From: a virus
Taxonomy: Duplodnaviria; Heunggongvirae; Uroviricota; Caudoviricetes
Length of the DNA: 64,000 nucleotides
IMG/VR virus record: IMGVR_UViG_2579779107_000005
Strand: one strand, 5' to 3'
The translations under genes and the position numbers were made by a program. Positions 12,264 to 37,804 of this stretch are shown here, piece after piece. Every line of letters starts with the position of its first letter. Within the stretch, counting starts at the first letter, position 1. Below the pieces are notes generated by a model. The model ran no database searches. It was not told the DNA's origin and was given only the letters and a program-made list of their open reading frames with translations.

Positions 12264-12361
12264 CATTAGTGAGCAGATCGGCGTGTCTACGGCCGCACGG
12301 GATGGGTCTCGGCCGACGTCGTGTTCCGCCGGCTACCGCAGCCCTGGCGTCAATTAGCCAC

Positions 12362-13790: not shown

Positions 13791-14281
13791 GCGATCACCC
13801 ACTCGAGGGTCTCGCGCAGCCATGCCTCGTTGGCGCCGTTGAAGGTGCCCTGCTCGCGCGCCCGGTCGATGATGTCTCGTTGCGCCTGCGCGAGGGCGGC
13901 GTAGATCGCGCGGTCGTCGATGCGGTGGATGACCTTGGCCCCGGTGAGCGTGTCCGGGTGGGTCGGGTCGAGGGGAGTCGTCTCGAACACGGGAACCGTG
14001 AAGTCGACGAGGTGGTTCGGCACTCCGTCGCGGACCTGCACGAGGATGCGCGCCGGCAGGGTGGTGACCGGCTCCTCCATCGCGACATCGGCGACGAGGC
14101 GGAAGCCCGTGCTGGTCGGCCGCATTCTGTCGAGGCGGACCTTGGTGCGGTGGCCGGCGCTCCACTCCATGATGGCGTGCGTCTCGGTGATGTCGACGAC
14201 CTTGCCTCGGCGGCCCTTCTGGCGCTTGTCGCAGTCCTCCCAGGTCTGGCCGACGACGGCACGGGGCTCGGCGGCGGTCAC
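13787..14281 (-). CDS. hypothetical protein
   Basis: 164 aa ORF. Operon-packed. Protein-like composition. Confidence 0.45.
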   Translation of the reverse strand: MTAAEPRAVVGQTWEDCDKRQKGRRGKVVDITETHAIMEWSAGHRTKVRLDRMRPTSTGFRLVADVAMEEPVTTLPARILVQVRDGVPNHLVDFTVPVFETTPLDPTHPDTLTGAKVIHRIDDRAIYAALAQAQRDIIDRAREQGTFNGANEAWLRETLEWVIA

Positions 14282-14979
14282 GCGGCGCGCTCCTCGTCCT
14301 TGGCGTGGCCGGCGGGACCCTTCGGTGCTTCGTCGCCCTTGAGGGTCACCTTGTACGACTCGCGCGATGCGGTGTGGAAGACGACGATGCCCTCGGGCCG
14401 GTCAAATCGGGCGGCCAGGGAGCCGTGCGTGCGCAGGTTCTCGAGCGCCTCCTGGATCGCGGCCTCGCTGAACGGGCCTTCGTAGAGTACGGGCACGACG
14501 CCGAGGCCGGGCACGTCGTCGTTCCAGAGGTCGGTGCCGTCCCACGGGTGGTCGAAGTCAGCCCAGCGACCAGTGTTGAACAGCGAGAAGTGCCTCTCGC
14601 CGCCCTTGAGGCCGTAGCCCGACTGGATGCCGGAGCCCCACCACTCGCCGTAGTGGGCGCCCTCGCCGAGCAGCTCGACGAGCGCCTGCGCGTTCTTCTC
14701 GACCCAGGCGGCGAACCCATAGTTGTCGGTCTGCTTGCCGGGGGTGATGAAGCGAGTGCGGGACTGGGCGTAGACGTGGTACTCGGTGTTGGGGAAGCCG
14801 TCTTCGGCGAAGTCGGTGCCGAGGATGACGGCGACGCAGTTCGGGTCTTCCTTGACGGATGTGCCGAAGGTCTCCGCGACGATGACGACGGCCGCATTGG
14901 TGCCGTCGATCTTCTCGGTGACGATGATGTTGCGGTTGAGTCTGGCGATCTTGGGCCAGGGCTTGAACTCGATGGTCAC
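14278..14979 (-). CDS. RNA ligase-family nucleotidyltransferase
   Basis: 233 aa. Motif I KIDGTN (KxDG) near the N-terminus plus downstream EG/IVVFH and K-rich motifs typical of small ATP-dependent RNA/DNA ligase-type enzymes. Confidence 0.6.
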   Translation of the reverse strand: MTIEFKPWPKIARLNRNIIVTEKIDGTNAAVVIVAETFGTSVKEDPNCVAVILGTDFAEDGFPNTEYHVYAQSRTRFITPGKQTDNYGFAAWVEKNAQALVELLGEGAHYGEWWGSGIQSGYGLKGGERHFSLFNTGRWADFDHPWDGTDLWNDDVPGLGVVPVLYEGPFSEAAIQEALENLRTHGSLAARFDRPEGIVVFHTASRESYKVTLKGDEAPKGPAGHAKDEERAA

Positions 14980-15176
14980 GATGTCACTCTCCGGTAGGGG
15001 CTGATCTGGTCTTCGGTGGCGTAGCGGCGGCGGCCGGACTGGCCGGAGCGCAGGGTGTAGAGCGGCCCGTAGGCGCTCCCGTCTGGGTTGATGTCGATGA
15101 CCTCCCAGGTGAGCGGGTGGGCATCGTCGGCGATCGTCACGACGTCGCCGAGCTGGATGTCAGAGGTCTCGGCCAT
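14976..15176 (-). CDS. hypothetical protein
   Basis: 66 aa ORF. 4-nt overlap with the downstream gene. Confidence 0.35.
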   Translation of the reverse strand: MAETSDIQLGDVVTIADDAHPLTWEVIDINPDGSAYGPLYTLRSGQSGRRRYATEDQISPYRRVTS

Positions 15177-15272
15177 CGCGCCACTCCTTGAAGACCCAGC
15201 CGCCGAGGAAGCCGGAGCCGAGGCCGATGAGGCAGAAGACGAAGGCGATGCCGGCGGCGGCGGATTCGGCGA

Positions 15273-15503
15273 TCATGCGGCATCTCCCGCCCGCTCGGCG
15301 AGGATCGCCTTGCGCTCTCCCATGGGGAGAGTGATGTCGTGGGTGCGCGTCTGGCGGGTGCCGTCTTCGAGTCGCTGGTGCACGACGACCTCGGACGTAC
15401 GGAAGTCGATGCGCGTGACGCTCCCGATGTTCTCGACGCCGAGAGCGGCGGCGAGGTCAACAGCGGCCGAGAAGGCGGCGAGACGGACTGTGTGGAGGGT
15501 CAT
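15273..15503 (-). CDS. hypothetical protein
   Basis: 76 aa ORF. Protein-like composition. Confidence 0.35.
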   Translation of the reverse strand: MTLHTVRLAAFSAAVDLAAALGVENIGSVTRIDFRTSEVVVHQRLEDGTRQTRTHDITLPMGERKAILAERAGDAA

Positions 15504-15770
15504 GCGGCTTCGGTTCCTTCCTACTGCGTGGGGTGCAGCTCGATGACGCCGGACTCGGGGTTGCGGTACACGAGGTACAAGCCGGGCGCCGGCGGGAGGT
15601 ACTTCGTGAGCGAGACGCGCCCGCGGCTGTCGGGGAGGACGGAGCCGAGGGGCTGGCGGCCGGCCATCAGCGTGCCGTCCCGTGGGCTGTGGTCTGGATG
15701 CCGGAGGTGACGCGGGCGTCTCCGAGGCGGTTGGCTTCGGCGATCAGCTCGTCGAAGGTGGGCTGGGGGG

Positions 15771-16553
15771 TCATGCGGCGTTCCTTTCGAGGCTGGCGAG
15801 GTAGTGGGTGGGCCATTCGGGCTCGCAGACGGCGGTGGGCTCGTTACCCTTCGTGCGGAGCCAGTTCTGGAGGCTGGCCTGATCCTCGGCGCGCCAGCCG
15901 ATCTGCTGGCCGTGGAGGGCGCTGAGGCTGGTGCGGAGGTCGGGCGCTCCGGCGAGGTGAGGGAGGTGCTTGCGGATGATGGCCTGGGTGATCCGGCCGG
16001 AGGCGATCGCGTCGAAGTTGGCGGCGTGAGCCTCCTCCTCCGAGAGCTGGATGCCGTAGCGCGCCGCGGTGGCGACGAGCTTGCGCTGGCCGGAGCCCTT
16101 GATGTACTTGGCGAAGTGCCTGTCGAGGACGATGGAGTCGAGGACGTTGATGCCGCTGCCGCCGAAATGGGGGCCATAGGGGAGCGGCGAGGAGCCCGCG
16201 CGGACGAGGTGGGCGTCGAGCATCGTGCAGTCGTAGGCGAGGTTGTGGCCGGCGAGCGGGGTGGTGACGAGGGCGCCGCCGCAGATGGCGTAGATCAGGT
16301 GCCCGATTTCGGTCACTACCGCGTCGATGTCGCGGCGGGTGCGCGGGTCGGCATCGAGGCGCTCCTTGGTCCAGCCGTGCACCTCGGCGGCGCCGTCCGG
16401 GATCGGGATGCCGGGGTCGACGATCCACTCCTGCTCGCGGATGATGTTGCCGTCGGGGCCGAGGAGACCGAAGTAGGCGGTGACGATGCGGTCGTTGAGC
16501 GGGTCAGTGCCGGTGGTTTCGAGGTCGAATACGCCGAGGTCGAAGTCGATCAT
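15771..16553 (-). CDS. DnaQ-like 3'-5' exonuclease (DEDDh)
   Basis: Exo I FDLETTG, Exo II HNLAYD and Exo III HAANFDAIASG motifs. Confidence 0.8.
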   Translation of the reverse strand: MIDFDLGVFDLETTGTDPLNDRIVTAYFGLLGPDGNIIREQEWIVDPGIPIPDGAAEVHGWTKERLDADPRTRRDIDAVVTEIGHLIYAICGGALVTTPLAGHNLAYDCTMLDAHLVRAGSSPLPYGPHFGGSGINVLDSIVLDRHFAKYIKGSGQRKLVATAARYGIQLSEEEAHAANFDAIASGRITQAIIRKHLPHLAGAPDLRTSLSALHGQQIGWRAEDQASLQNWLRTKGNEPTAVCEPEWPTHYLASLERNAA

Positions 16554-17023
16554 CGGCGGGCCTCCGTGTCCTTCTCGATCTGGGCGGTGGCCTGGGCGCC
16601 GAGAGCGCGGGCGATCGACGGCGGGATCGGGTAGCTCGTCGGCTCGGCGAAGCTTCGGTCGGCCACCAGGTCGACGTCGTGCACATCGCCGGGGCGCTGG
16701 GTGCTCAGCTTGTCGAGGAGCGGTCCGCCGATGGCTGCGACTTCCTCCTTGGTGAGGACTCGCTCGGGGCGCTTCGTGGGCTGCGGCGTGAGAACGTACC
16801 GGTTGCTCTGGGGGCGAAGCAGCGCGACCGCCACCATGACCAGGTATGCGACCAGGAAGACGACGCTGAGGTTGAGGCGGAAGTTGAAGAAGAGGTCGAG
16901 GACGAGCACGACGACGAAGAAGGCGGCGTAGGCGACCAGGAGGGCGTACTCGGCGACCCAGGCGGGGTTGTTCCTGGCCGTATAGCCGGGGAGCGGGCGG
17001 TTGGAGGTGAGCTTGGTGGTCAC
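16550..17023 (-). CDS. membrane protein
   Basis: 157 aa. Two strongly hydrophobic helices (WVAEYALLVAYAAFFVVVLVLDLFF, LSVVFLVAYLVMVAVALL). Confidence 0.5.
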   Translation of the reverse strand: MTTKLTSNRPLPGYTARNNPAWVAEYALLVAYAAFFVVVLVLDLFFNFRLNLSVVFLVAYLVMVAVALLRPQSNRYVLTPQPTKRPERVLTKEEVAAIGGPLLDKLSTQRPGDVHDVDLVADRSFAEPTSYPIPPSIARALGAQATAQIEKDTEARR

Positions 17024-17034
17024 GGTGTCTCCTA

Positions 17035-17169
17035 GACGATGGGTGAGTCGAGCGGGGGAACGAAGTCGCAGTGCGTGCAGGCCACGACGTCGGTGCCGGG
17101 GCGGAAGGGGAGCATGACGCGCCCGCAGTACCGGCAGCCGACGGGGAGCCTGGCGCCGGCGGGGATCAC
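17035..17169 (-). CDS. small zinc-ribbon protein (not in ORF track)
   Basis: About 44 aa. GTG start overlaps the upstream stop (GTGA). Two CxxC pairs (VGCRYCG ... CTHCDF). Confidence 0.3.
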
Positions 17170-17501
17170 TCGTCGACGTGGCCGGCGGCGGCCTGGTTCA
17201 GCTCGTCGTGGATGGGCTGGTTCAGGAGCTGGCGGATGTGCTCGCTCTTGACGAGCTGCACGGTGCGGAAGTAGGTGCGGGCGTCGGCCTTGAGGCCGCG
17301 CTCCTGTGCGTACTTGTCGGCGAGGGCCTTGCGGGCCTGCTCGCGGGTCGAGGCGCCGGAGGCATAGACGGTGCGGCGGTCTGCGCGGTGGGCGGCGGCC
17401 TGGGCTTCGTTGTTCACGGGTTCTCCTTGCTGCGGGTTGTCGAGTTGGGGGTGGTGTCCCAGTCGCCGGGTCCGAATAGCTGGCAGATTCGCCAGACCCA
17501 C
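17166..17501 (-). CDS. hypothetical protein
   Basis: 111 aa ORF. The start may lie internally. Confidence 0.35.
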   Translation of the reverse strand: MGLANLPAIRTRRLGHHPQLDNPQQGEPVNNEAQAAAHRADRRTVYASGASTREQARKALADKYAQERGLKADARTYFRTVQLVKSEHIRQLLNQPIHDELNQAAAGHVDE

Positions 17502-17556
17502 CAGGCCGTGGCGAATGCGACGCCGGCGATGACGAAGCCGATGGCGAGGACTGCGG

Positions 17557-17769
17557 CTACCACCGGACCAGCTCCCAGACCCAGCCGCAGAGGGCGCAGG
17601 CTCCCCAGGCGATCACGGCGAGGAACCACGAGAGGAGGAGGTGGCGGCCGATGGTGAGCATGTTCTGGAACCACGTGAGCCACCCGAGCCACGAGAGGAC
17701 GCCGCTGATCGATCCGACGAAGGTGGCGACGATGAGGAAGGTGATGAGGAGCGCGAGCGGCCAGTCCAT
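17557..17769 (-). CDS. small membrane protein
   Basis: 70 aa. Two hydrophobic helices. Trp-rich. Confidence 0.4.
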   Translation of the reverse strand: MDWPLALLITFLIVATFVGSISGVLSWLGWLTWFQNMLTIGRHLLLSWFLAVIAWGACALCGWVWELVRW

Positions 17770-18029
17770 CAGGCTGCCACCTCCTCGGTGCCGCTGAGGC
17801 GAGCGCGCACGGCGGCGATGAACGCCTCCTGGGTGACCCCGGCGCGATGGAGGGCGTCGTCGATAGGGTGGCCCCAGCGCGGGCTGCCGAGCGGGCGCTT
17901 GACGTCGAAGTCTTCGCCGAACTTGAGGTACTGGGCGAGGATCGCGCCGGCGTAGTCGCCGAGGGTGGCCTCGTCGTCGACCCTGTGCAGGGCGGGGTCG
18001 ATCGGGAGGGCGAGGATGTCGGCGGTCAC
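17769..18029 (-). CDS. hypothetical protein
   Basis: 86 aa ORF. Overlaps its neighbours. Confidence 0.4.
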   Translation of the reverse strand: MTADILALPIDPALHRVDDEATLGDYAGAILAQYLKFGEDFDVKRPLGSPRWGHPIDDALHRAGVTQEAFIAAVRARLSGTEEVAA

Positions 18030-18451
18030 GCGGTCAGCTCCTTGGGGGCTGCGGCCGGGGTGGCCTCGGTGTCGGGGATTCGGGTGGCCTCGAAGATGAC
18101 GATGGCCTCCTGGTAGTCGCGGATGGCGGCGAGGGCTCGAGCGCGCTCCTCAACCGTGAAGTCGGCATAGCGGCCGTCGACGCGGAGGTAGCCCTCGGCG
18201 GCGCGGAGCATGTCGGCGCGGGAGCCGTTGGAGAAGTCCTCGATACTGCTGGCGCTGTCGCCGAAGCCGTTGCAGGAGCAGCCGGAGTCCTCGAGCCAGA
18301 AGTAGCGGTCGCGGCTCGGGGAGTACCAGCCGGCGATGCCGGACCACTCGTAGCCACCGGTCTCCTCGTGGAAGACCTCCTGCCAGTCCTCGAAGCCGGA
18401 GCGGGCGACGTACGTGCCGGCCTCGTAGTCGTAGCGGTCGATGGCGCTCAT
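18026..18451 (-). CDS. hypothetical protein
   Basis: 141 aa ORF. Protein-like, acidic. Confidence 0.45.
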   Translation of the reverse strand: MSAIDRYDYEAGTYVARSGFEDWQEVFHEETGGYEWSGIAGWYSPSRDRYFWLEDSGCSCNGFGDSASSIEDFSNGSRADMLRAAEGYLRVDGRYADFTVEERARALAAIRDYQEAIVIFEATRIPDTEATPAAAPKELTA

Positions 18452-18951
18452 GCGGTGGCCCCGAGGGTCTTGGCGGCCTCGAGGAGGTCGGTGAAGGTGT
18501 AGCCGTGCTCCTCGAGCACGTCTTCCAGCTCGCCGGTCCAGCCGGAGTTGCCGAAGGGGCGCTTGCCGGAGAAGCCCTCGTCCTCGTAGAGGACGGTCCA
18601 GAGCAGCTTGCCGAGGTACTCGCGGATCGACGAGGCGTTGGCGTCGTTCTCGTCCGGGTTCATGGGGAGGTCGAGGATCGGGTGCTTGTCGGCCACGGGG
18701 GACTCCTTCGTGTTCGGGGCGCCGTCGGGGACGGTCTGCCAGGCGGGGACGCAGCGCTGGACGGCGCTGGTGTAGAGGACGCCCTTGCGGCCGTATCGGC
18801 GGGCGCTGTTGAGGCGGTCGGTGCGCATGCCGCGGGCAGCGCCGAGCGTTCCGTAAGGGCCGTAGATGTCGGTCTCGACGGTGCCGTCCGGCAGGGTCTT
18901 GTAGATGACGGCGCGGAAGCTCTCGCCGTCGGCGGCTTGGCGGCGGGCCAT
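18448..18951 (-). CDS. hypothetical protein
   Basis: 167 aa starting at MARRQAADGESFRAV. The upstream S/T/P/R-rich part of the 308-aa ORF in the track is an artefact frame. Confidence 0.45.
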   Translation of the reverse strand: MARRQAADGESFRAVIYKTLPDGTVETDIYGPYGTLGAARGMRTDRLNSARRYGRKGVLYTSAVQRCVPAWQTVPDGAPNTKESPVADKHPILDLPMNPDENDANASSIREYLGKLLWTVLYEDEGFSGKRPFGNSGWTGELEDVLEEHGYTFTDLLEAAKTLGATA

Positions 18952-19130
18952 CAGGCGTTCGCCTCTCGGACGAGCTGGTCGAGCCAGAGCTGGGCCTCGT
19001 CGAGCTTGGTGAAGACGAGCGCCTTCTCGCGCGAGACGGGGAGCTGGGCGACCTGGGCGCGCGCGGTGTTGAGGCCGCTGTGTGCGCGTTCGACGGCGGC
19101 CAGTTCGCGGCCGTTGAGAGCCACGGTCAC
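18951..19130 (-). CDS. small hypothetical protein
   Basis: 59 aa. GTG start overlapping the upstream stop. Confidence 0.3.
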   Translation of the reverse strand: MTVALNGRELAAVERAHSGLNTARAQVAQLPVSREKALVFTKLDEAQLWLDQLVREANA

Positions 19131-19486
19131 TCGCCCGTCTGGGTGACGTCGATGGCCTCGGTGATGTTCGGGAACGTCGAGAGGAAGCCGTTGCGGTGGC
19201 CGTACGTCGTGAAGAGGTAGGCGTGGTGGGGCTGGATGCTGGCGTAGATGTCGGCGGAGTTGTAGCGGCCGAGGAAGGGCGCGTCCTCGACGTTGAGGAT
19301 GCCGCAGTCGGAGGTGTAGACGCGGTAGACGCCGTTGCCGTCCTTGTCGATCGTGTGATCCTTGGAGTCGACATGGCACGCCTGGCCGTGGGTCACCTCG
19401 TCGGTGGTCGGGGCGCAACCGGCGAGAGTTGCGACGAGCGCGGCGCCGGCGAGGGCGACGGCTGCGATGCGGGTCCTGAGCTTCAC
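19127..19486 (-). CDS. lipoprotein
   Basis: 119 aa. Signal peptide ending in lipobox LAGC (MKLRTRIAAVALAGAALVATLAGC). Confidence 0.55.
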   Translation of the reverse strand: MKLRTRIAAVALAGAALVATLAGCAPTTDEVTHGQACHVDSKDHTIDKDGNGVYRVYTSDCGILNVEDAPFLGRYNSADIYASIQPHHAYLFTTYGHRNGFLSTFPNITEAIDVTQTGE

Positions 19487-19494
19487 GGGGTCTC

Positions 19495-19599
19495 CTAGTT
19501 GACGAGCAGGTACAGGGTGATGAGGTCGGCCAGGGCGAGTGCCCCGGCCACAGCCAGGAGGATCGAGTTGACCCTCCTGGCGCGGCGGGGGGTGGTCAC
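19495..19599 (-). CDS. small membrane peptide
   Basis: About 34 aa (VTTPRRARRVNSILLAVAGALALADLITLYLLVN). GTG start overlapping the SPFH gene stop. Confidence 0.25.
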   Translation of the reverse strand: MTTPRRARRVNSILLAVAGALALADLITLYLLVN

Positions 19600-20591
19600 T
19601 ACTTGGCCGGCGTCTGGATCAGCGGGTTCGAGCCCTGGGGGACGACGAACACGGTGCCGGCCTTGAGGGCGTCGATGTAGTGCTGCTGCAGCACCTCGGG
19701 GGTCAGCGACTGCGTGAGGAGCTGGTTGGCCTTGGCGTCGGCCTCGGCCTTGGTGACGGCCTGCTGCGAGGAGACCTTGGCGGCGTCGAGCTTGGCCTGC
19801 TCCTTGGTGACGTCGATCTGAGCCTGCTGGGCGGCGGCGTAGCTGTCGGTGACCGCCTGGGGAGCGCGAATCTCCTGCAGCGAGATGCTGTCGACCGTGA
19901 CGCCGGCCTTGGCCCAGCGGGTCTCGAGCGCGTTCTTGATCTTGGCCTCGACGTCGGCACGCTTGGTGAGCAGGTCGATCGTGGAGAAGGCGTTCGGCAC
20001 CTCGCGGACGACGGCGCGGATGTCCTGCTCGATGAACGACTTCTTGAAGTTGTCCTCGGTCTTGAACTGCTTGTAGATGTCCGTGACGGCGGAGGCGACG
20101 ACCGAGTAGCGGACGGCCACGTCGATGTTGGAGGTCACGCCGTCCTGGTCCTGGACGGTGATCTGGGGGCCGGCCGCCTGGCCGCCGTTGTTGTCGTTCT
20201 GGTTGCCGCTGGCGCCGGCGAAGACGATCTGCTGGGTGCCGGTGCTGAACGAGATGGTGTCGACCCACGGCGCCTTGGTGTGGAGGCCGGATTCGGTGGT
20301 GGAGCCGACGAGGTTGCCGGTCCAGTCCTTGAGCTGCACCGACTCGCGCGTCTCCTGCGTGTAGAAGAGCTGCGGGACGCTGGCGCCGAGCCCGCCGATG
20401 ATGGCTGCGACGGTCAGGCCGAGGGCGACCCACTTGGCGACGGCGCTGGGGCCGTACTGGATGTAGTAGCGCTCCTCCGCCTTCTTCTGCCTGTGGATCG
20501 CCAGGGCCTTCTTGTAGGCGCGGGTGAGGGCGATGGTGACGACGATGCCGACCAGGCCCAGGATGAGCAAGATGAGTCCGAAAACGAACAC
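19599..20591 (-). CDS. SPFH/band-7 (prohibitin/HflK-like) domain membrane protein
   Basis: 330 aa. N-terminal TM helix, then an SPFH-type core (IDVAVRYSVVASAVTDIYKQF...), then a C-terminal coiled-coil (QQAQIDVTKEQAKLDAAKVSSQQAVTKAEADAKANQLL). Confidence 0.65.
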   Translation of the reverse strand: MFVFGLILLILGLVGIVVTIALTRAYKKALAIHRQKKAEERYYIQYGPSAVAKWVALGLTVAAIIGGLGASVPQLFYTQETRESVQLKDWTGNLVGSTTESGLHTKAPWVDTISFSTGTQQIVFAGASGNQNDNNGGQAAGPQITVQDQDGVTSNIDVAVRYSVVASAVTDIYKQFKTEDNFKKSFIEQDIRAVVREVPNAFSTIDLLTKRADVEAKIKNALETRWAKAGVTVDSISLQEIRAPQAVTDSYAAAQQAQIDVTKEQAKLDAAKVSSQQAVTKAEADAKANQLLTQSLTPEVLQQHYIDALKAGTVFVVPQGSNPLIQTPAK

Positions 20592-22049
20592 GTATCCTCC
20601 AGGTGATTTAGCGGGCTATTTGCCCTCTGGAATCCCACTATGGGGCAAGTGCGGCACTAGTTCAAGAAATTTAGCGGGCAATTTTCGGCGGTCCCCGCGG
20701 GGAGCTGGAAGGAGTGGCCGGCGAGGGGTTTCGTCGAAGCGGTGCAACTGGGGCAATCGCACCGCTCGGGCGCCGGCGAGGCGCACACCCGCCCCCGGCC
20801 TTTCGCGCGCGTCCCCCTGTCTTAAAATCTGAGGGCTTTCAGGTGGTTCCCAGGTTCGCGTTCGCGGAAAAAAAGATTCGCTGTTTCTGGAGCGTGATCT
20901 ATACCCCCCTCTGTGCGCGCGCGTGTGTGTTCTCTTTTCGATCATGGGGTGCATCAATCGTAAGTTGTTTCTTGATTCGGCTAGTGGTGTGTTAGTGTCT
21001 CTCTTGTCAGCGCGAAAGGCCCCCGGGCCGGAGGTGCTAGCGATCGAATCTTGAGAATTGAATATCGACCTAGCGGGGGAGCGATCCCCATACGCAATAG
21101 CTACAGGCGCTAACCAGAATCCGGCATGCGGGGATATGAAAGGGCAATGCGAGCAATCGCAGAGCTGCAAAGAATGCGCTTGAGAATCAGCAGACTGGAC
21201 AGAGCACGCCCCCGGGCCGCTACTCACGTACTTGCATACTTAGTCGCCACGCTGAATCACTAGCTAAAGTGCAAAACAGATAGCGACCTGCTAGAGTCGG
21301 TATCACGCCGAACGGGGCAAACCGGGAAACCGGTCACACCCCGCGAGACGCATCAAGATACGCAAACGCGAAACCAGCAACGTGCGGGCTGCAACCCAAT
21401 CCGACCTGGTTGAGCACCCGTCCTGGGCCACGGGCCTAGCCGAGACAGGGATTCACGTAGAGCGCCATGCGCACGGTTGTCCGTGCTCAGTCCGGTGGGC
21501 TTGACCCACACGGCCATGCTGCTCCACGCCCGAAATAGGCAGGGATGCGGAATCGCAACTTGGGAATTCAATAGTGGACTCTTAGCGCGCTAATGCCATA
21601 GCGCTCGCCCCTCGACACTGGGCGGCCTAGGCGCGTAGAGCATCATCCGATCGGCCATAGTGCCGCGCATCGGATCGCGCTTGGTAAGCGCGTGTCGTAC
21701 TAGCTCGACCTGTGCGAGCAAGTAGCCGAACAACCTCTCAGCTACAGAGGCACCAGTACGAGTGTGCCTAGGCGGAATTGCAGCCCGTCACCCCACAGTG
21801 GAACCGACCGAACGCCCTCTCCTGGGCGTGCACACCAGCGGGTCGGGAACCGTGACAGGACCACGGAACGAATTGAGTACCAAGATTTGCACCACCCCTA
21901 GCGCTGTCAGCCCGGGTATCCATCCCCGGCATGCGAACCACGCCGCAGGGTCACGCGGCAGCCCCGTGCTCCCACTACAGGTGGGCGCGGTCAGACCGGG
22001 CACGGGGCACGCATCATCCACCATCCGCACACACCAGACAGGGGACCAC
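20592..22049. other. long non-coding, lower-GC divergent switch region
   Basis: About 1.46 kb with no convincing ORF (the listed ORFs are low-complexity artefacts). Two TTAGCGGGC(T/A)A motif copies at 20607-20618 and 20671-20682. A duplicated module, CTTGAGAATTGAATATCGACCTAGCG at about 21047 and CTTGGGAATTCAATAGTGGACTCTTAGCG at about 21566. GC-rich hairpins (GGCCCCCGGGCC). Confidence 0.5.
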
Positions 22050-22329
22050 CATGTCCAAATCCGCCACCCTCGACCGGCCCACCATCACCCACGCGATCGA
22101 CACGGCGGGGCGCGACCTGGGTCCCGTGTCCAAGCGCACGGCCGAGTACCTGTACCTCGCCGACGGATCGCGCATCGCCCTCCACCGTGTGCAGAAGCTC
22201 GCGGCCACCCCCATGCCCACCCAGCAGAAGACCGTCCAGCCGGGCGTCACCCTGCACCAGTTCCCGGACGGCCAGTACCACGTGTCCACCACGGACCAGT
22301 GGCTCGCCGCCTGGGGTGAGGAGCTGTAG
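22050..22329 (+). CDS. hypothetical protein
   Basis: 93 aa from ATG 22050 (MSKSATLDRPTITHAI...). The longer upstream frames are artefacts. Confidence 0.45.
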
Positions 22330-22470
22330 AACCATGCCCAACCGCGACCACAAGCGCACCCCCGAATCCAAGGCCCGCACCCGCCAGCGTCAGCAGGCCC
22401 GCGCCCTCAAGTACGGCAAGACCCGCAAGCTGCGCTAGATTAGCCAGCAATTCATCAACCGGAGGCATTC

Positions 22471-22839
22471 GTGACCGCACCCATCCTCAGCACCAAAGGC
22501 ACGCCCATCACGTCCCGCGACGCTCTCGCCCAGTCGGCAGAGCGCGCCCGCCGCAGGCTCGCGGCCCACTCCCACGCCCCCGCCGGCGTCCTGTGGGACA
22601 GGCTCGCCGACCGCACCGACCTCGACCGAAAGCACGCCAAGAGCGTCGTGCTCTCGCCCGCGTACCACCTCGGCATCGCCCGTGCCTTCAACCGGGTCTC
22701 CCGCCACGCAGCGCTGCGCGGCACTCCCGGCGCGACCATCGGCAAGATCCTGCGCCCCTACGGCGAAGACGCCCGCGCCATCAGCCAGCTAATCCCGCAG
22801 GCGTACCGCGCCCCGCGCCCTCTGGAGGCCCGCGCATGA
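22471..22839 (+). CDS. hypothetical protein
   Basis: 122 aa ORF. GTG start after a TTAGC-motif gap. Confidence 0.45.
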   Translation: MTAPILSTKGTPITSRDALAQSAERARRRLAAHSHAPAGVLWDRLADRTDLDRKHAKSVVLSPAYHLGIARAFNRVSRHAALRGTPGATIGKILRPYGEDARAISQLIPQAYRAPRPLEARA

Positions 22840-22942
22840 GCTGGCTCGACATCATCCGCGCCCTGCTCAACCGCGGCGCCTGCTGGTACGGCCAGCACAC
22901 CACCCACTCGACGCGCTGCACCCTCAACTGAGAGGCACACCC

Positions 22943-23320
22943 ATGCGCTACTTCGGAGTCCTCAACGGCTCGGCCCTCGCCCCGTCGGGCATCCATGACC
23001 GTGAGGCCGTGGTCGTGCTCGATTCGATCCGCCACGCAGAGGACCACCTCTCGTTCGCCCATGTTGGCGCGAACCTCGCCCTGCGCAGCCACGGCGGCAA
23101 GACGCTCGACGGCGAGTACCCCGGCGACATTCCCGGCGGAGTGGGAGACGGGTCTCGCATCACGCTCTTTCAGGTGCCCCGCAGCTCTGTCTACGAGACG
23201 GACGACATGGACGCGGGGGAGCTGTATGACCTGCTGCTCCGCTGCTACGGCCCGGACCTCCACCCGGACTACGAACTGACCGTCGGCCCCCGTGGGGGCG
23301 TCAAGATCGAGAGGCTCTGA
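22943..23320 (+). CDS. hypothetical protein
   Basis: 125 aa ORF. Confidence 0.45.
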   Translation: MRYFGVLNGSALAPSGIHDREAVVVLDSIRHAEDHLSFAHVGANLALRSHGGKTLDGEYPGDIPGGVGDGSRITLFQVPRSSVYETDDMDAGELYDLLLRCYGPDLHPDYELTVGPRGGVKIERL

Positions 23321-23322
23321 CC

Positions 23323-23814
23323 ATGAGCACCCACGACAAGAACTGCGCCATGAGCGGGGCCGAACTCCGCCATGCCACCGACTCTGCACTGGAGACCCTC
23401 GCCTGGTCCGAGCACACAGGCTGCGACGCCCGCTCCACCTCGCTCGGCGGCGGCTTCATCTGCTACCAGTGTGGCTACCACTGCGAGTGCATCGTCTGCC
23501 GCGGTGGCAGCGACGACCGCGAACCCCTGCCCGAGTTCCTCGACGGCCTGGACTTCGACCAGTGGGCACCCGACGCGATCGAGAAGATGAGCGCCGAACT
23601 GTCGGACTTCATCGAGTCCAACTCCGCCGACCTCGACGGGCTCGACTACGGGCAGATCGCCCACGACTTCATCCTCACCCGCAACGCCTCCGGCATCGGC
23701 TTCTGGGACCGCGGCTTGGGGGAGCGTGGCACCCGCCTCACTGCCGCCACCAAGCCCTACGGCGAGATTCACGCCTGGGCCAACCACGAGACCCGCACCC
23801 TCGACTTCGAGTAG
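23323..23814 (+). CDS. hypothetical Cys-rich protein
   Basis: 163 aa with a Cys cluster (CYQCGYHCECIVC). Confidence 0.45.
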   Translation: MSTHDKNCAMSGAELRHATDSALETLAWSEHTGCDARSTSLGGGFICYQCGYHCECIVCRGGSDDREPLPEFLDGLDFDQWAPDAIEKMSAELSDFIESNSADLDGLDYGQIAHDFILTRNASGIGFWDRGLGERGTRLTAATKPYGEIHAWANHETRTLDFE

Positions 23815-23823
23815 GAGACCACC

Positions 23824-24600
23824 GTGACCACCGAAGACACCACCCCCGACGACGGCCGCAGCGTCGTCGCCTACGACAACCTCGACCGTGCGCTCACCAT
23901 CTGGGGAGCCACGTTCTACGACCAGACCTGGACCGCCCAGGAGAAGCGTTACCTGCTCGATGAGGCCGAGGCTGGCTTCGACGCCACGAACGAAGACCCC
24001 GACGGCTTCCGAGTCTGGGTCTCCACCTTCGGCCTCTACAACGCCGGGAGTCTCGCGGGCTACTGGGTCGCCGCCGAGCACGCCCCGACCACCGTGCCCG
24101 AGTTCATCGCTGGCATGGTCATCCGCAACCACAGCGTCGGCAAGAGCTTCCTGCAGAACGTGGGGGAGGAGCTGAACTGCTTCGACATCGAGAACAGCCC
24201 CGTCGACGCCGAGATGCACCCGAGCGCCGCGAAGGCATGGGCAGAGGCCATCAACGCGACCATCGCTGACCAGGGCGATCAGGTCACCACCTCGCTCATT
24301 GTCACCTTCATCCGCGACCACACCGGGGGCATCTGGCCCGACGACCTCACCAGCACCTTCGACGACCGCTTCCACGGCTTCTGGGAAGACGGCATCGCCT
24401 CCTGGTGGGTTGAGAACGTCTGGGAGACCTGGGTCGCCGAGTACAAGCAGCTCGCCGAGCACTCCTACCCGCGAGTCACGCTCCCCGACTGGCTGGAGTA
24501 CGCCGCATGGGGGATCGCCAAGAGCCAGGCCGAGGACTACCGCCTCTCCGGGTGGGCCGAGATTCACACCAACGACGGTGTGGCGGTGTTCAGCGAGTGA
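23824..24600 (+). CDS. hypothetical protein
   Basis: 258 aa ORF. Trp-rich, acidic. Confidence 0.5.
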   Translation: MTTEDTTPDDGRSVVAYDNLDRALTIWGATFYDQTWTAQEKRYLLDEAEAGFDATNEDPDGFRVWVSTFGLYNAGSLAGYWVAAEHAPTTVPEFIAGMVIRNHSVGKSFLQNVGEELNCFDIENSPVDAEMHPSAAKAWAEAINATIADQGDQVTTSLIVTFIRDHTGGIWPDDLTSTFDDRFHGFWEDGIASWWVENVWETWVAEYKQLAEHSYPRVTLPDWLEYAAWGIAKSQAEDYRLSGWAEIHTNDGVAVFSE

Positions 24601-24866
24601 CCATCCCCATCACCGCCGATCACCTCCGCCAAGCCGCACTCCGCTCGATCAAGTCCCCGCCCAACCCGCAGAGCGGCAAGCGAGAGGGCGACCCGCTGCC
24701 CATCCTCGTCAACGCCAACAACGCGCCGAGCCTCTACGGCATGGTCGAGAGCATCACGGGGGAGCTTCCCCCCGACGCCCCGAGCTACCAGCCCGAACCT
24801 CTCGCCGCCTACCTGCGCTCGATGCTGCGCCGGTGGGCCATGAAGCACGAACAGGAGAACCCGTGA
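24597..24866 (+). CDS. hypothetical protein
   Basis: 89 aa. GTG start with a GTGA overlap. Confidence 0.35.
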   Translation: MTIPITADHLRQAALRSIKSPPNPQSGKREGDPLPILVNANNAPSLYGMVESITGELPPDAPSYQPEPLAAYLRSMLRRWAMKHEQENP

Positions 24867-25174
24867 CCACCATCCCCACCTTCCCCGAGCACGCCATGAC
24901 CGCGGGGGAGCGCAGGGCTCTGCGCACCCAGGCCGACCTCGAGCGCCAGGCCAACCTCGTCACCCGCATCAGCGCCGCCACGCTCGGCATCACCACCGAG
25001 CCCACCCGCAAGCGCAAGCCCGCCGGCGAGTACCGCAAGCGCATCCGCCGGCGCCGCGTGCACGCCGCCCTCTACCTCACCAAGCAGCTCGTCATCGGCT
25101 GCATCCAGGGCTTCATCGCCGCCATGTTCGCCATCGGCCTCGCCACCACCGTCGTCGCCATCCTCACCCACTAG
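24863..25174 (+). CDS. hypothetical protein with C-terminal TM helix
   Basis: 103 aa. Hydrophobic C-terminus (LVIGCIQGFIAAMFAIGLATTVVAIL). Confidence 0.4.
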   Translation: MTTIPTFPEHAMTAGERRALRTQADLERQANLVTRISAATLGITTEPTRKRKPAGEYRKRIRRRRVHAALYLTKQLVIGCIQGFIAAMFAIGLATTVVAILTH

Positions 25175-25182
25175 GAGACCCC

Positions 25183-25650
25183 ATGACCAACCGCATCGAT
25201 GACACGGCCACCGCCGAATACACCGTCACCGTCCCCACCACCGTCAGCCGAGCCACCCTGGAGGAAATCCTCGACGGCCTCGGCTTCGACTGGTACTGGG
25301 CCTACGAGGTCACCCACCACGACGACCTGACCGACGTCGAGCGCACCGAGGGCCTCGCCTTCAAGGTCGGCTACTGGGACGACGGCGAGCAGTGGCAGCC
25401 CAGCAACGCACCCCGCGACGGCGCGATCTTCACCCACAAGTACGGCATCGTCGAGTACCACGAGGTCAAGGTCACCTGGCAGCAGCTCGCAGACGGCCTC
25501 GCCCTCATCGCCTCTGGCAAGCTCGCCAACGTCGAGCTGACCAAGGCCGCGTCCACCTACCTCCACGCCCCCAACGAGGCCGACGGCGACTTCTGGCTCG
25601 CCGACGTCGTGGTGCAGGCCGCCGCCTTCGGAAAGCTGGTGTTCGGATGA
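25183..25650 (+). CDS. hypothetical protein
   Basis: 155 aa ORF. Confidence 0.45.
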   Translation: MTNRIDDTATAEYTVTVPTTVSRATLEEILDGLGFDWYWAYEVTHHDDLTDVERTEGLAFKVGYWDDGEQWQPSNAPRDGAIFTHKYGIVEYHEVKVTWQQLADGLALIASGKLANVELTKAASTYLHAPNEADGDFWLADVVVQAAAFGKLVFG

Positions 25651-25937
25651 CCCTCACCGCACCCGCCGCCACGGCACACCACCCGTCGACCCTCCACAAG
25701 GTCCACGCGGCAGGCGACGCCAGCCGCAACCGCGTCGTCATCCGCGACGACGAGACCCACGAGGAGAAGCTCCAGCTCACCCCCTCGGCAGCCGAGAAGC
25801 TCATCCGCGACCTGCAAGGCGCGCTCGCCCTGCTCGACGTCTTCGCCCGCGCTCGATCGCAGCACGCCGGAGACCTCTACGAGGCCATGCGCGACGCCAA
25901 CGAGCACGACCCGGAGCACGACCCGAACGTCCCCTGA
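25647..25937 (+). CDS. hypothetical protein
   Basis: 96 aa. ATGA overlap. Confidence 0.4.
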   Translation: MTLTAPAATAHHPSTLHKVHAAGDASRNRVVIRDDETHEEKLQLTPSAAEKLIRDLQGALALLDVFARARSQHAGDLYEAMRDANEHDPEHDPNVP

Positions 25938-25945
25938 CTCGAATC

Positions 25946-25990
25946 TGGGAGGGGTTCGCAGACACCCGTCGCGGACCCCTCCCCGCATTT
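25946..25990 (+). terminator. terminator-like hairpin
   Basis: GGGAGGGGTTCGC-N10-GCGGACCCCTCCC followed by GCATTTACC. Confidence 0.45.
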
Positions 25991-26290
25991 ACCAGCTATC
26001 TCACTATGTAGCTAATATATTCATATAGTTAGTTGTATTAAGAGCATAGAGATAGTGTCACTACAACTCCCTGGTCAGGCCCCATTTCGCCCGCCCCGGA
26101 AAATCAACAACAACGGTCACATAGCGGGCTAATTCGCACTACATCGTGGACATACGCTATAAAGAAGCTGCACGCATCTTCATCAGGGTGCATAGCGGAT
26201 CGATATAGCGCATGTCGGCGATATAGCGGGAAATCCGCAGCAATGTGACCGGTATAGCCGATCCTGAACTTAGCTGGCTATTCGAACATC
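25990..26290. repeat. AT-rich segment plus iteron-like (T)ATAGCGG repeats (putative origin/regulatory region)
   Basis: AT-rich 25990-26060 (CTAATATATTCATATAGTTAGTTGTATTAAGAGCATAGAGATAG). Six (T)ATAGC(G/C)(G) repeats at about 26121, 26192, 26205, 26222, 26253 and 26270. Largest gap in the early plus block. Confidence 0.45.
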
Positions 26291-26332
26291 AACCCCTCAC
26301 GAACACTCGAACATTCATTCGATTGGAGCATC

Positions 26333-26719
26333 ATGACGAACACCGCGGAGAGAGAGACGCACGCCGATGCGAGCGCACCTGTGACCCTTCCGGCGCGGAA
26401 GTTCTTCGCGCTCGGCACCGAGGACCTGCTGGGCGGCGAGCACATCGGCCGGGTCATCTACCTCGAGCACTTCATGCGGATCGACCGGTTCGGCAGCCGC
26501 AACAGCAAGGAGCTGCGCGTCCGCAGCAAGACCCACATCGGGACCGTCGCGGCGGTCGTCGAGCACCGCGGCACCCGTGAGTACGGCGACATCGAGAGCC
26601 TGCGCCAGGCCGACAACTCGGACTTCCCCGACTACCACGTCGAGGTCATCTTCGCCGACGGCACCCACATCTTCATCCACGAGCGGGACACCGCGAACGT
26701 CACGGTGGTCGAGGCGTGA
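26333..26719 (+). CDS. hypothetical protein
   Basis: 128 aa ORF. Confidence 0.45.
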   Translation: MTNTAERETHADASAPVTLPARKFFALGTEDLLGGEHIGRVIYLEHFMRIDRFGSRNSKELRVRSKTHIGTVAAVVEHRGTREYGDIESLRQADNSDFPDYHVEVIFADGTHIFIHERDTANVTVVEA

Positions 26720-32433: not shown

Positions 32434-33006
32434 GTGAGGAAGCTCACACCCGAAGCCGAGGCCGCCGTCGAGCTGGCCGGCAAGAAGTGGCTCAAGCACA
32501 AGACCGCCCGCGAGACGCTCGAGGCGACGATCGCCAAGCGCGTCAAGACGGAGCTGGAGAGCGAAATGCTGGCTATCCGGCTGGAGTTCGCGACCGCCGC
32601 CCAGGCGGCGCTCGACGCCGGCGCGACCAAGATGGCTCTGCGCCGCGTCAGCAGCAAGAACCCCGGCACGCTCGAGGACTACCTCCTGCTGCTCGCCCCA
32701 GCCGAGACGCCCGAGACCGAAGCCGAAGCACAGGCCGCCGCGGTCGACGTCCAGATCGAGTGGATCGCTGGTGACCTGCTCATCAAGCTCGACCCGCAGC
32801 AGATCGCCGAGACCGACATCGACCGGCTCGATCCCGAGCTGTGGAGCGGCCTCTACGAGACGTTCCACCGAGTCGAAGACGACTCCTGGTTCATCGACCC
32901 GACGCCGATGGTCCCCGCCATCCACGGAGTCACCCAGTGGCTCTTCGCGGACACCGCCAACCACGACCGCGTGGTCGCCTGGGTGAAGGCGAACCCGAAG
33001 CCGTGA
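32434..33006 (+). CDS. hypothetical protein
   Basis: 190 aa. Shares a segment (ALDAGATKMALRRVSSK) with the 33647 gene. Confidence 0.45.
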   Translation: MRKLTPEAEAAVELAGKKWLKHKTARETLEATIAKRVKTELESEMLAIRLEFATAAQAALDAGATKMALRRVSSKNPGTLEDYLLLLAPAETPETEAEAQAAAVDVQIEWIAGDLLIKLDPQQIAETDIDRLDPELWSGLYETFHRVEDDSWFIDPTPMVPAIHGVTQWLFADTANHDRVVAWVKANPKP

Positions 33007-33646: not shown

Positions 33647-33958
33647 GTGACGATGGCGACAGTAGAATCTGTCCTCATGGACAAGGAACAGGCGATCGAC
33701 GAGGCCGGCCGAGTGTGGCGCAACAGCGTGGCGGAGCTGCCGGCCCTCAAGAAGCGCATCCGCGCCGAAGCCGAGGCGCGCATCGCCGAGGAGACCGAGG
33801 CCCGCCGCAAGGAGGCCGCCATCGCCATCCAGTTCGCTCTCGACGCTGGGGCCTCCAAGGCCGCACTGCGCCGGGTCACCACCAAGGACTACCGCGACTT
33901 CGAGGGCTACGTCGAGCTGGCCCAGCAGGTCACCGCTGAGGGGGCCGTCAGTGAGTGA
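33647..33958 (+). CDS. hypothetical protein
   Basis: 103 aa. Coiled-coil-like. Confidence 0.45.
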   Translation: MTMATVESVLMDKEQAIDEAGRVWRNSVAELPALKKRIRAEAEARIAEETEARRKEAAIAIQFALDAGASKAALRRVTTKDYRDFEGYVELAQQVTAEGAVSE

Positions 33959-36932: not shown

Positions 36933-37214
36933 TTGAAGAGGAAGGCTACCCACTTGACCGACGATGAAGCCATCGACCTGATCGAGGGCTACGAGGACTG
37001 GCGGAAGAAGCGCGCCAGCTCCGAGCCTGACCTGTCCGCCCGCGCCTACCTCGAGGAGCGGCAGGCAGGCAGGCGGCTCGAGCGCATCGAGTCGCTCGAG
37101 ACCACCGTACGATCCGCCGCCGGCTACACCTCGAAGATCGTCGAGGGGTACGCCGACGTGGTTCCGCTGCACCTGGTGCAGACGGTCCACGACGTCCTGA
37201 CCCGGGAGCCCTGA
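36933..37214 (+). CDS. hypothetical protein
   Basis: TTG start at 36933 or 36954 (GAGGAAGG RBS upstream). Confidence 0.35.
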   Translation: MKRKATHLTDDEAIDLIEGYEDWRKKRASSEPDLSARAYLEERQAGRRLERIESLETTVRSAAGYTSKIVEGYADVVPLHLVQTVHDVLTREP

Positions 37215-37540
37215 TGGGTGCCGGTACGGGGGTCGCGAGGCGAAAGGCCCGCGACTACGTGAGGAACGAGGCAGACCGGGAGTTCCAGCAGGCACACGAG
37301 GAGAGCGTCGACTTGAAGTGCCGGAAGCCCGGAGCTTGGAGGTACTACATCGGCTTCAAGCCGAGCCAGCGGCCCACCGCGGAGGGCGCGAAGCGCCTCT
37401 GCGCTGGTGTGGCCGGCGTCTCCGAGTCCTGCCCGCTGCTCGAAGCGTGTCGGGCCTTCGCCCACAATCTGCCGCCCGGAGTGGCGGACGGAGTGTGGGG
37501 CGGCCAGGTCTGGATCGACGGCGTTCTGCAGGCTGAATGA
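37214..37540 (+). CDS. WhiB-like (Wbl) transcription factor
   Basis: 108 aa. Four Cys including C-X9-C-X5-C (CAGVAGVSESCPLLEAC) followed by the Wbl-type G[VI]WGG turn (GVWGG). Confidence 0.6.
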   Translation: MGAGTGVARRKARDYVRNEADREFQQAHEESVDLKCRKPGAWRYYIGFKPSQRPTAEGAKRLCAGVAGVSESCPLLEACRAFAHNLPPGVADGVWGGQVWIDGVLQAE

Positions 37541-37804
37541 AATTAGTGGGCAATTGCCCCTTGCGTTAGCCCGCTAAACGGCATACCTTGATAGTCACAG
37601 GCAGTCACACAATGACCGCCCCGACCGGAGAGGAGGACCCGTGTTCTGGCAAAACTCGCGTAGGAGGTGAGTTGCTCCCCAGTGAACCCAATCGAACTGA
37701 GGAGCGACCACCATCAGAAGGCGCAGAAGGAATCGGCCGGGCGAGGCAGCTCTCCCTACGAGCTGCCTCCCCGGCCCCACCCATTAGAACAGGAGTTTCA
37801 CCGC

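Follow-up and report, generated by a model that had tools for sequence, protein, structure and literature searches.

A 395-bp non-coding module common to five related actinobacterial phages and its possible role as an operator hub

Dispersed repressor-binding sites have been described in temperate actinophages, namely the conserved inverted repeats (CIRs) of the Streptomyces phage phiC31 and the stoperators of mycobacteriophage L5, the latter being asymmetric and oriented. Repeats of another kind, the iterons of phage lambda, are themselves dyads. In this study we analysed a 64,000-nucleotide stretch of Caudoviricetes DNA (IMG/VR virus record IMGVR_UViG_2579779107_000005), the whole of which is hereafter called the window, and we focused on the 395-bp gap that separates two genes at positions 25938-26332. 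A previous reading of this gap, made from the sequence alone, had proposed either a replication origin of classic architecture, with an AT-rich unwinding element followed by iterons, or a group of operator half-sites that would govern the downstream operon, from 26333 onward. We report here that the gap is a real non-coding module common to five related, undescribed actinobacterial phages. The operator cluster is the proposal that fits the evidence best, and we assign a probability of about 0.4 to the gap being an operator hub through which expression of the second early operon of the phage is gated.

Other described systems offer points of comparison. In the IncP-1 plasmids RK2/RP4, the KorA operator OA is TTTAGCTAAA and the KorB operator OB, to which a ParB-family protein binds, is the 13-bp TTTAGCSGCTAAA, TTTAGC(C/G)GCTAAA (PMC2680271). 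The origins of the staphylococcal pathogenicity islands (SaPIs) comprise 6-12 penta- or hexanucleotide iterons, with at least two on each side and in opposite directions, which are read by a primase-helicase; the two iteron sets flank an A+T region, and rep stands immediately ahead of the origin (PMC9371898). Finally, the Lsr2-like protein CgpS recognises, in a Corynebacterium prophage, a distinct drop in G+C together with a short A/T-step motif near the transcription start, and the regions that it binds extend over 500-850 bp or wider (PMC7002338).

A non-coding module conserved in five phages

The gap is the sole large one within the rightward gene block of the window. It divides the tightly packed first operon, operon A (~22.0-25.9 kb, with an ArdA-like gene), from the remaining rightward genes, which overlap tightly and form a long operon running from 26.3 to ~51 kb and leading to the replication genes. 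The proteins encoded on either side of the gap (25183-25650 and 26333-26719) had no relatives but themselves among 5.8 billion proteins and in IMG/VR, and a DNA search of GenBank phages, in near and distant modes, gave no match to the window. Homologues of the helicase encoded downstream are 56-63% identical, and the contigs that bear them yielded four phages with an equivalent region: L002, L003 (of which L004 is a near-identical copy), L005 and L143. The other helicase-bearing contigs, L006, L007, L142, L155 and L157, begin too near the helicase gene to cover the gap. The hosts infected by these phages or carrying them are Microbacteriaceae (Leifsonia, Frigoribacterium and Pseudolysinimonas). 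As one relative, L005/L145, sits within a 998,696-bp Frigoribacterium contig, phages of this type appear to be temperate and to integrate as prophages; no integrase was recognised anywhere in the window.

In the relatives, the gap measures 382-397 bp, lies 5-9 kb upstream of the helicase gene and comes directly after the gene of a conserved protein of 155-181 aa. The five gaps align and share an architecture made of a hairpin, an A+T block, a CCCCCGAAAC motif, a palindrome, TAGC cores and, ~20 nt past the right palindrome foot, a complete dyad. The genes right after the gap are unrelated between phages (an XRE-type helix-turn-helix gene in L005, ORFans elsewhere) and the conserved core genes resume only ~5.5 kb beyond it. 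Because the module is kept while the adjoining genes vary, it is a conserved cis element among exchangeable genes. Comparison with related phages had been proposed as a check on the sequence-only reading, and it gave a mixed answer: the module as a whole is conserved, but neither the spacing of the repeats nor their copy number is. Farther away, L144, the only distant relative that pattern and single-protein searches of IMG/VR brought up, has a 76-bp spacer after the conserved upstream gene, the module lacking at that position. The pattern GGTCACATAG-N(100-130)-ATGTGACC, searched in IMG/VR and metagenomes, and GTCACAGGNNGTCACAC, searched in IMG/VR, returned chance matches only, none of them similar to the gap or to the proteins of the phage, and a genome scan matched only the Frigoribacterium prophage of L005.

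This conservation bears on the view that the gap has no function and is a decaying spacer, with repeats and a palindrome arisen by chance or by local duplication. The shortness of the repeat units and the choice of the test region after inspection would leave room for it, but the architecture is kept in five phages with helicases 56-63% identical and with differing flanking genes, the half-site enrichment and the palindrome recur, and the A+T block aligns above shuffles; we regard this view as very improbable.

Several other identities were considered and rejected. An attP site was discarded as the L005 gap is uninterrupted and 100% identical inside the Frigoribacterium contig, with no attL/attR split. 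A miniature inverted-repeat transposable element or insertion sequence was discarded on account of its constant position in five phages and of the absence of a second copy in the window, a packaging site because the terminase genes are 19 kb off, and an invertible promoter on account of the palindromic interior and of the lack of any recombinase close by. The gap was not called as a small coding gene, as it holds no called open reading frame (ORF) and shows no codon-position bias; it was not retained as a member of a known RNA family, having no Rfam match, and a tRNA or tmRNA was rejected as well.

Each of the elements on which the sequence-only reading was built is present in the gap where it had been described. 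The module starts with a G+C-rich hairpin, 10 nt past the stop codon of the upstream gene (25935-25937), and equivalent hairpins are found in L002, L003, L005 and L143. It is a terminator-type structure that would end the first rightward operon; its tail, CGCATTTACC, fails the U-tract rule of the terminator scan. The AT-rich stretch was borne out even more clearly: with 27% G+C, positions 25997-26056 are the lowest 60-nt stretch of the 64-kb window, the next lowest being at 42%. In all five phages the A+T block is the lowest-G+C 60 nt, at 17-38% in the four relatives. Its sequence is conserved beyond shuffles, as the L003-L143 and L005-L143 pairs both score 48 and the shuffle maximum is 27-31. 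Its folding is not significant (z -1.6 to +1.0). In L002 the block is inverted (the L002-L005 score is 36 reversed and 16 direct), and in L143 it precedes the hairpin instead of following it. Its function therefore appears, from these alignments, to be independent of orientation, and this tolerance of inversion and relocation is the strongest point in favour of an origin or of an Lsr2-type silencer site.

In the latter case, the A+T block would be a nucleation site for a host xenogeneic silencer of the Lsr2 type, which would keep the lytic operon off. We judge this rather improbable; it would in any case be a compatible addition to the other readings. The sharp and isolated drop in G+C, to 17-38% in genomes of 63-70% G+C, recurs in the five phages, the block is orientation-independent, and the position of L005/L145 within a Frigoribacterium contig indicates that this phage type appears temperate. 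The targets of CgpS/Lsr2 in prophage CGP3 likewise combine a G+C drop with a location at the head of a lytic unit in a high-G+C actinobacterial prophage, but they cover several hundred bp (PMC7002338), and the CgpS-bound regions of 500-850 bp contrast with a dip of ~60 bp in the phages studied here. In addition, the dip is partly conserved in sequence, which suggests a more specific partner than a silencer of this type.

Half-sites, dispersed dyads and a proposed operator hub

Downstream of the A+T block, the six spaced copies of (T)ATAGC(G/C)G that had been claimed are present: exact ATAGCG is found at 26121, 26192, 26205 and 26223, ATAGCC at 26254 and TTAGCTGGCTA at 26270. An inverted CGCTAT at 26155-26160 had been missed, as had two cores inside the A+T block (GCTAT at 25995 and TAGCTAA at 26009-26015). 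The start-to-start spacings of the repeats are 71, 13, 18, 31 and 16 bp and their orientations are mixed. Over both strands of the window ATAGCG is at chance level overall (15 copies), and six of the 15 lie within 108 bp (26121-26228). When the region 26100-26290, which has 49% G+C (~50% at the palindrome centre), was submitted to dinucleotide shuffles, some hexamer was present five times in only 4 of 2000 trials, a p-value that is optimistic as the region was picked after the repeats were seen. With the shorter core WTAGC/GCTAW, 11 copies were counted in 25995-26281 and nine in the densest 200 bp, compared to a window mean of 0.19. In the other phages, three of the four regions homologous to the gap show the half-site enrichment independently, and within the palindrome the TAGC/GCTA cores are 6- to 9-fold over local composition in four of the five phages. 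GCTA-type cores are mostly in the left arm and TAGC-type cores in the right arm in the window, L003 and L143. The flavour of the repeat varies by phage (ATAGCG, GTAGCG, CAATAG), the dispersed dyad being unchanged.

The last two repeats had been seen to merge into a dyad motif family, and this family is real: TWGCNNGCWA (core TTAGC-NN-GCTAA, 14 bp) is found at 17 sites of the window versus 1.3 expected, and none of 100 shuffles reached 17. The dyads are nearly all intergenic and usually lie 5-10 nt ahead of a ribosome-binding site, with no clear orientation bias. In at least five cases (32382, 33620, 35884, 50999 and, on the minus strand, 52863) the upstream gene terminates at the TAG contained in the dyad. 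Members of the family occupy syntenic intergenic sites in L002, L003, L005, L006 and L007. The ATAGC-type repeats of the gap are half-sites of this dispersed dyad family, and the gap also holds two complete dyads (Table 1). The first, which adjoins the left foot of the palindrome, has counterparts in L005 (3012) and in L003 (4556), where it is more central; the second, which lies between the right foot (19 nt away) and the start codon (52 nt away), has counterparts in L005 (3152), L003 (4612) and L143 (~1341).

The same motif is found elsewhere in the genome. The divergent region at 20.6-21.9 kb, of lower G+C, has three dyads and 23 TAGC/GCTA cores. As this region is dyad-rich too, the motif marks control regions generally and not one site; the region 20592-21930 is a second control hub and the sole other non-coding origin candidate. 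A promoter-like sequence composed of TTGCGA, a dyad filling the 17-18-bp spacer, TAnnnT and then GTCACAGGnnGTCACAC precedes the exonuclease gene, both in the window and in five related loci. The dyad thereby takes the place that an operator would have in a SigA-type promoter, and this predicted promoter ranks second or third among the lowest-G+C windows of L002, L003 and L005. Directly before it, 37214-37540 encodes a weakly WhiB-like protein (Pfam E = 0.0012) with no GenBank phage match; among the small proteins of the group it is the best conserved, with 66-74% identity in seven relatives.

The operator reading fits best because the repeats of the gap share the core of the dyad, because the dyad fills a promoter-like spacer elsewhere and because the gap stands at a boundary between transcription units and between classes of codon usage. 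The module is preceded by a hairpin and followed by a ribosome-binding site and a start codon, most dyads are just upstream of ribosome-binding sites or gene starts, and G+C dips mark the conserved promoter-like block of the exonuclease gene too. In L005, the first gene downstream of the gap is predicted to encode an XRE-type helix-turn-helix protein. We propose that a dimeric regulator reading the TTAGC half-site would occupy both complete dyads and then cooperatively fill the half-site array, giving a large nucleoprotein complex; an Lsr2-type nucleoid protein may also bind the A+T dip. Such a complex would block or gate transcription into the second operon, which would be silent in the lysogen and released after expression of the first operon.

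Several results weigh against this proposal. A consensus search for a sigma-70-type promoter conserved across the five phages found none in the gap on either strand. In the gap of L002, the TAGC array and both dyads have been lost and only the A+T block and the closing inverted repeat remain, which means that the module does not have the operator array as its universal core. A palindrome of 130-170 bp with a compensatory closing stem is more than a simple cluster of operators requires. The A+T block can be inverted and can stand before or after the hairpin, a behaviour more in keeping with an unwinding element or a silencer/nucleoid-protein site than with a promoter of the downstream operon, which would tolerate neither change. 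Lastly, profile searches of Pfam, PHROGs and PDB and one AlphaFold model did not name any dyad-binding protein, and among the window proteins scanned with Pfam/PHROGs no helix-turn-helix protein was found. Two neighbouring conserved proteins (33647-33958 and 32434-33006) share the motif GATKxALRxVTTKD and have no Pfam or PDB relative; the first is modelled by single-sequence AlphaFold as a long helical hairpin with two short helices (pLDDT 78). This pair is a candidate only for the dyad-binding proteins.

In working mode, the phiC31 CIRs, the L5 stoperators and the RK2 global operators would be the nearest analogues of this arrangement. As in phiC31 and L5, one short motif is repeated across early intergenic regions, some of its copies being at (here predicted) promoters and others between genes, in an apparently temperate phage type with an actinobacterial host. 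The motifs are unrelated in sequence, and the one described here is a dyad without clear orientation bias. To our knowledge, neither phiC31 nor L5 has a 160-bp palindromic half-site array beside an extreme A+T block. The marks of dispersed operators are found here: the motif is far above chance, and the motif and its positions are conserved in the relatives. The likeness to the KorA and KorB operators of RK2 resides in the half-site, TTTAGC/GCTAAA, which is the same, and in the palindromes being scattered over control regions, at promoters or distant from them. However, the half-sites are spaced by 0 bp in KorA and 1 bp in KorB operators versus 2 bp here, and the hosts are unrelated. No KorA or KorB/ParB domain was found by Pfam in the window proteins scanned, the only ParB-related match being a DndB-like protein (10372-11808). 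As the spacing differs and no Kor/ParB protein is found, we do not claim membership of the Kor operator family, and the likeness of the motifs is to be taken as a sequence-based lead.

Much of the repeat pattern is accounted for by a feature that had been missed, the imperfect 160-bp palindrome P2, which is the longest inverted repeat of the 64-kb window: several of the 'iterons' are its arms, CGCTATA at 26155 pairing with TATAGCG at 26204. The relatives have imperfect palindromes of 130-170 bp with a foot-to-foot distance of 117-135 bp. A CCCCCGAAAC-type motif precedes the left foot by 7-12 nt in all the phages but L005, where it is found upstream of the A+T block. The feet of the closing stem are GGTCACAT/ATGTGACC in the window and L002, GGACACGT/ACGTGTCC in L003 and AGC(T)CATAT/ATATGGCT in L005. 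Compensatory two-sided changes were found at four pairs of the closing stem among four sequences; covariation was counted for this stem and these four sequences only, as the MAFFT alignment is unreliable inside the palindrome and L143 is misaligned there. The GTCACA unit of the exonuclease promoter-like block also forms the feet of the palindrome. Compared to shuffles, the folding z of P2 is -6.3 on the plus strand and -6.8 on the minus strand in the window; the corresponding values are -6.6/-7.0 in L003, -5.3/-7.4 in L143 and, more weakly, -2.3/-3.4 in L002. In L005, in which the palindrome is reduced to its feet, there is no significant hairpin (z -1.6/-0.6).

These data raise the question of a structured RNA, in which the palindrome would be transcribed as a long hairpin of 140-160 nt, either as a 5' leader element of the second operon (e.g., for RNase III processing or stability) or as an antisense RNA from the minus strand. 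We consider it unlikely. The folding is far beyond shuffles in the window, L003 and L143, the pairing of the closing stem is kept through the two-sided changes at four pairs, and the minus strand folds better in all four hairpin-bearing phages. Mismatches are also asymmetric, with 27 plus-strand A.C, each of which reads as a G.U in the opposite strand, versus 6 G.T (p ~0.01 against composition). On the other hand, Rfam gave no match, at the gathering score or at E up to 1, L005 is without a significant hairpin, and no conserved promoter or terminator was found for such an RNA. The excess of A.C parallels the general plus-strand bias of this block towards C over G and A over T and could be mutational, and the comparison comprises just four or five sequences with an unreliable alignment of the palindrome interior. 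Moreover, inverted protein-binding sites co-vary in the same manner, so that the compensatory changes cannot separate RNA from DNA. In L002 and L003 the right foot is only ~40-50 nt from the start codon, a further point for an RNA, and a rightward promoter would need to be placed inside or upstream of the palindrome. The folding of the minus strand and the asymmetry of the mismatches are a weak lead for an RNA.

The question of a replication origin

Classic origin architecture, as invoked by the sequence-only reading, is not what the gap displays: the core of the repeats is 5-7 bp, their spacing is irregular, their orientation is mixed and no DnaA box is conserved. Classical iterons, in the sense of at least three tandem units of 17-22 bp with a regular ~11/22-bp spacing, are not found in the gap. 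The gap is not within or next to an initiator gene, as the flanking genes are small ORFans, and the nearest replication genes are those of the helicase, 8 kb away, and of PrimPol, 17 kb away. The window and L143 each have a single 7-of-9 match to the DnaA box, and the two matches do not correspond in position. An adjacent A+T-rich unwinding element is present, in the window and in the four relatives. The origins of lambda and of theta plasmids likewise associate an A+T element with repeated protein-binding sites, but the gap differs from them in having no regular 17-22-bp tandem units, no adjoining initiator gene and no DnaA boxes.

Cumulative GC skew, which had been proposed as a means to locate the origin, does not point to the gap: its extremes, at ~20.5 kb and ~46-51 kb, are gene-strand switches, and none is at 26 kb. 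A step in GC skew is present at the gap, from about -0.18 on the left to -0.065 on the right in the window; it is found in the coding strand of all five phages (left of the gap, -0.17 to -0.28; right of it, -0.06 to -0.09) and has the polarity expected at an origin. The step is mainly due to third codon positions (GC3). The GC3 skew is -0.42 in both operon A (22051-25937, plus strand) and the leftward operon F (13003-20591, minus strand), and -0.20 to -0.29 in every other gene block. Under a replication effect, operons A and F would be expected to differ, as one is head-on and the other co-directional with the fork. Since they are equal though located on opposite strands, the step follows the coding strand, i.e., the expression class, and not the replication fork. 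The skew step is thus a boundary between classes of genes and codon usage, and not a fork origin.

A non-classical origin can still be envisaged, and we hold it to be a possible, if doubtful, function of the gap. The A+T element would be unwound and the opposed short (A/T)TAGC repeats would serve to load an initiator-helicase in two copies, the PrimPol-DUF3987 protein being the most plausible candidate for it; the dyad operators would tie firing to the transcription regulator. No other 60 nt of the window, or of any of the relatives, are as low in G+C as the A+T block (27% vs 67% for the window; 17-38% in the relatives), and this block tolerates inversion (L002) and relocation (L143), as would an orientation-free DNA element. 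Half-sites are of the GCTA type on the left and of the TAGC type on the right in the window, L003 and L143, the variation of the repeat flavour with a constant dyad would fit co-evolution of initiator and origin, the module is conserved amid variable genes, and the regions beside the PrimPol gene show nothing origin-like. However, the repeats have a 5-7-bp core and irregular spacing, neither their copy number nor their spacing is conserved, and the A+T block is ~60 bp outside the array and not between its halves. The distance of the replication genes (8 kb for the helicase and 17 kb for PrimPol), the absence of a conserved DnaA box, the turning of the cumulative skew at strand switches and not at 26 kb, and the equal skew step in the opposite-strand operons A and F count against an origin as well. 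Finally, the core of the repeats is shared with the motif found at ~15 other gene starts.

The closest precedent for such an origin would be that of the SaPIs, in which short opposed iterons are read by a primase-helicase (PMC9371898). The likeness lies in the short opposed repeats, in the A+T segment and in the encoded primase fused or linked to a helicase-initiator. The 11 WTAGC/GCTAW cores of 25995-26281 are opposed by arm, in the manner of the SaPI iterons, and the same holds for L003 and L143. Unlike in the SaPIs, the A+T block is not central, as it ends ~60 bp before the array, and the origin would not adjoin rep, the PrimPol gene being 17 kb away with no such repeats after it; in the relatives, the next gene overlaps the PrimPol gene. 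The sharing of the repeat core with ~15 sites elsewhere in the genome is also a difference from the SaPIs.

The operator hub, ranked first, and the non-classical origin, ranked second ahead of the structured RNA, are not mutually exclusive. An element of dual purpose, of a so far undescribed kind, can be conceived for a temperate PrimPol-helicase actinophage, in which the short inverted iterons of an origin would be the half-sites of the genome-wide operator of the phage, an operator with a KorA/KorB-like half-site at a new spacing: one regulator would silence early transcription at ~17 sites and license or block firing, with the A+T block as an unwinding or silencer site. This combination is, in our opinion, about as unlikely as the structured RNA.

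Genome context and significance

The window, at 67% G+C, comes from a genome of the siphophage type. The proteins of the window are identical to entries deposited under Leifsonia aquatica as 'hypothetical' or SNF2-related, and a contig of the Logan assembly is 100% identical to part of the window and reaches 1166 bp past the window start. The capsid gene at the left end (1-1854) and the tape-measure gene at the right end (61953-64000) are both leftward; the structural operon would run from the left end into the right end, as if the record were circularly permuted and the genome were ~70 kb long. The coordinates of the features of the gap and of its surroundings are collected in Table 1.

Table 1. 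Features of the gap, dyad sites and gene layout (window coordinates unless a relative is named)
Feature	Position	Strand
G+C-rich hairpin: arms 25947-25959 / 25971-25983, 13 nt, 92% complementary, 11-nt loop	25947-25983	+
A+T-rich element, partly conserved sequence (TATAG...AAGA.TAGA.AGAG)	25995-26057	
C-rich motif CCCGCCCCGGAAAA, counterpart of CCCCCGAAAC in relatives	26090-26103	+
Imperfect palindrome P2, 160 bp: arms 26103-26161 / 26204-26262, 59 nt, 71% complementary	26103-26262	
Left foot of closing stem, CGGTCACAT	26114-26122	+
Complete dyad operator 1, ATAGCGGGCTAATT	26121-26134	
Inverted half-site CGCTAT (ATAGCG on the minus strand)	26155-26160	-
Three direct ATAGCG half-sites (26192, 26205, 26223)	26192-26228	+
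Right foot of closing stem, ATGTGACCG, 129 bp from left foot	26243-26251	+
Half-site ATAGCC	26254-26259	+
Complete dyad operator 2, TTAGCTGGCTATT	26270-26282	
Leader: TCGAACAT twice (26282, 26307), Shine-Dalgarno GGAG 26325-26328, ATG 26333	26282-26335	+
Dyad sites	565, 20609, 20672, 21583, 22441, 26122, 26271, 32382, 33620, 35884, 37567, 41295, 41539, 43309, 50999, 52863	
Dyad site inside a gene, probably chance	5907	
Exonuclease promoter-like block, strongly conserved: degenerate dyad, TTGCGT, dyad in the 17-18-bp spacer, TACCTT, tandem GTCACAGGCAGTCACAC	window 37530-37612; L002 13360-13445; L003 13310-13390	
Same exonuclease block in further relatives	L005 13070-13145; L006 6945-7025; L007 8430-8512	
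Leftward genes: capsid/protease, portal, large terminase, inserted transposase, leftward early block F	1-20591	-
DDE-type transposase, opposite strand to leftward block	8634-10091	+
DndB-like (ParB-fold) protein	10372-11808	
414-aa ORF, no family match	11885-13129	
1.3-kb non-coding region without convincing genes, between two divergent early operons	20592-21930	
Rightward genes	21931-51001	+
ArdA-like gene	23824	+
SNF2 helicase	34318	+
Exonuclease	37667	+
Sak4-like gene	41579	+
tRNA-Ala, anticodon GGC, between dyad (43309) and PrimPol-DUF3987 gene	43396-43484	
PrimPol-DUF3987 gene	43521-46052	+
Toprim/topoisomerase-like gene	48675	+
Leftward lysis and tail genes	51060-64000	-

The ATG at 26333 is that of the first gene of the long rightward operon. 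Within the leftward block, the stretch 7200-13130 is of lower G+C and may be an insertion or a lysogeny/defence cassette. In the rightward block, the ORF of a nicotinamide phosphoribosyltransferase (39012-41222) has ~230 N-terminal residues without a domain match; as these residues overlap another high-GC3 ORF (38806-39705), its true start is uncertain. A decamer, GAATCTGTCC, has four copies in the window (11731 on the minus strand, 33665, 54013 and 58437) versus ~0.03 expected, three of which are followed by a GTTCG-like sequence.

What is new here is a 395-bp cis-acting module that is kept while the surrounding genes swap, together with a linked genome-wide dyad. They provide two handles: the fragment itself for an assay of origin or silencer activity, and the operator sequence (dyad TTAGCCAGCTAA) for fishing out the regulator. 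The fragment could also seed vectors for a poorly tractable bacterial group. If it is an operator hub, the module would represent one more case of dispersed operators, a useful but not surprising addition; if the origin or the dual-purpose reading is true, it would be the first origin described for the PrimPol-helicase class of actinophages.

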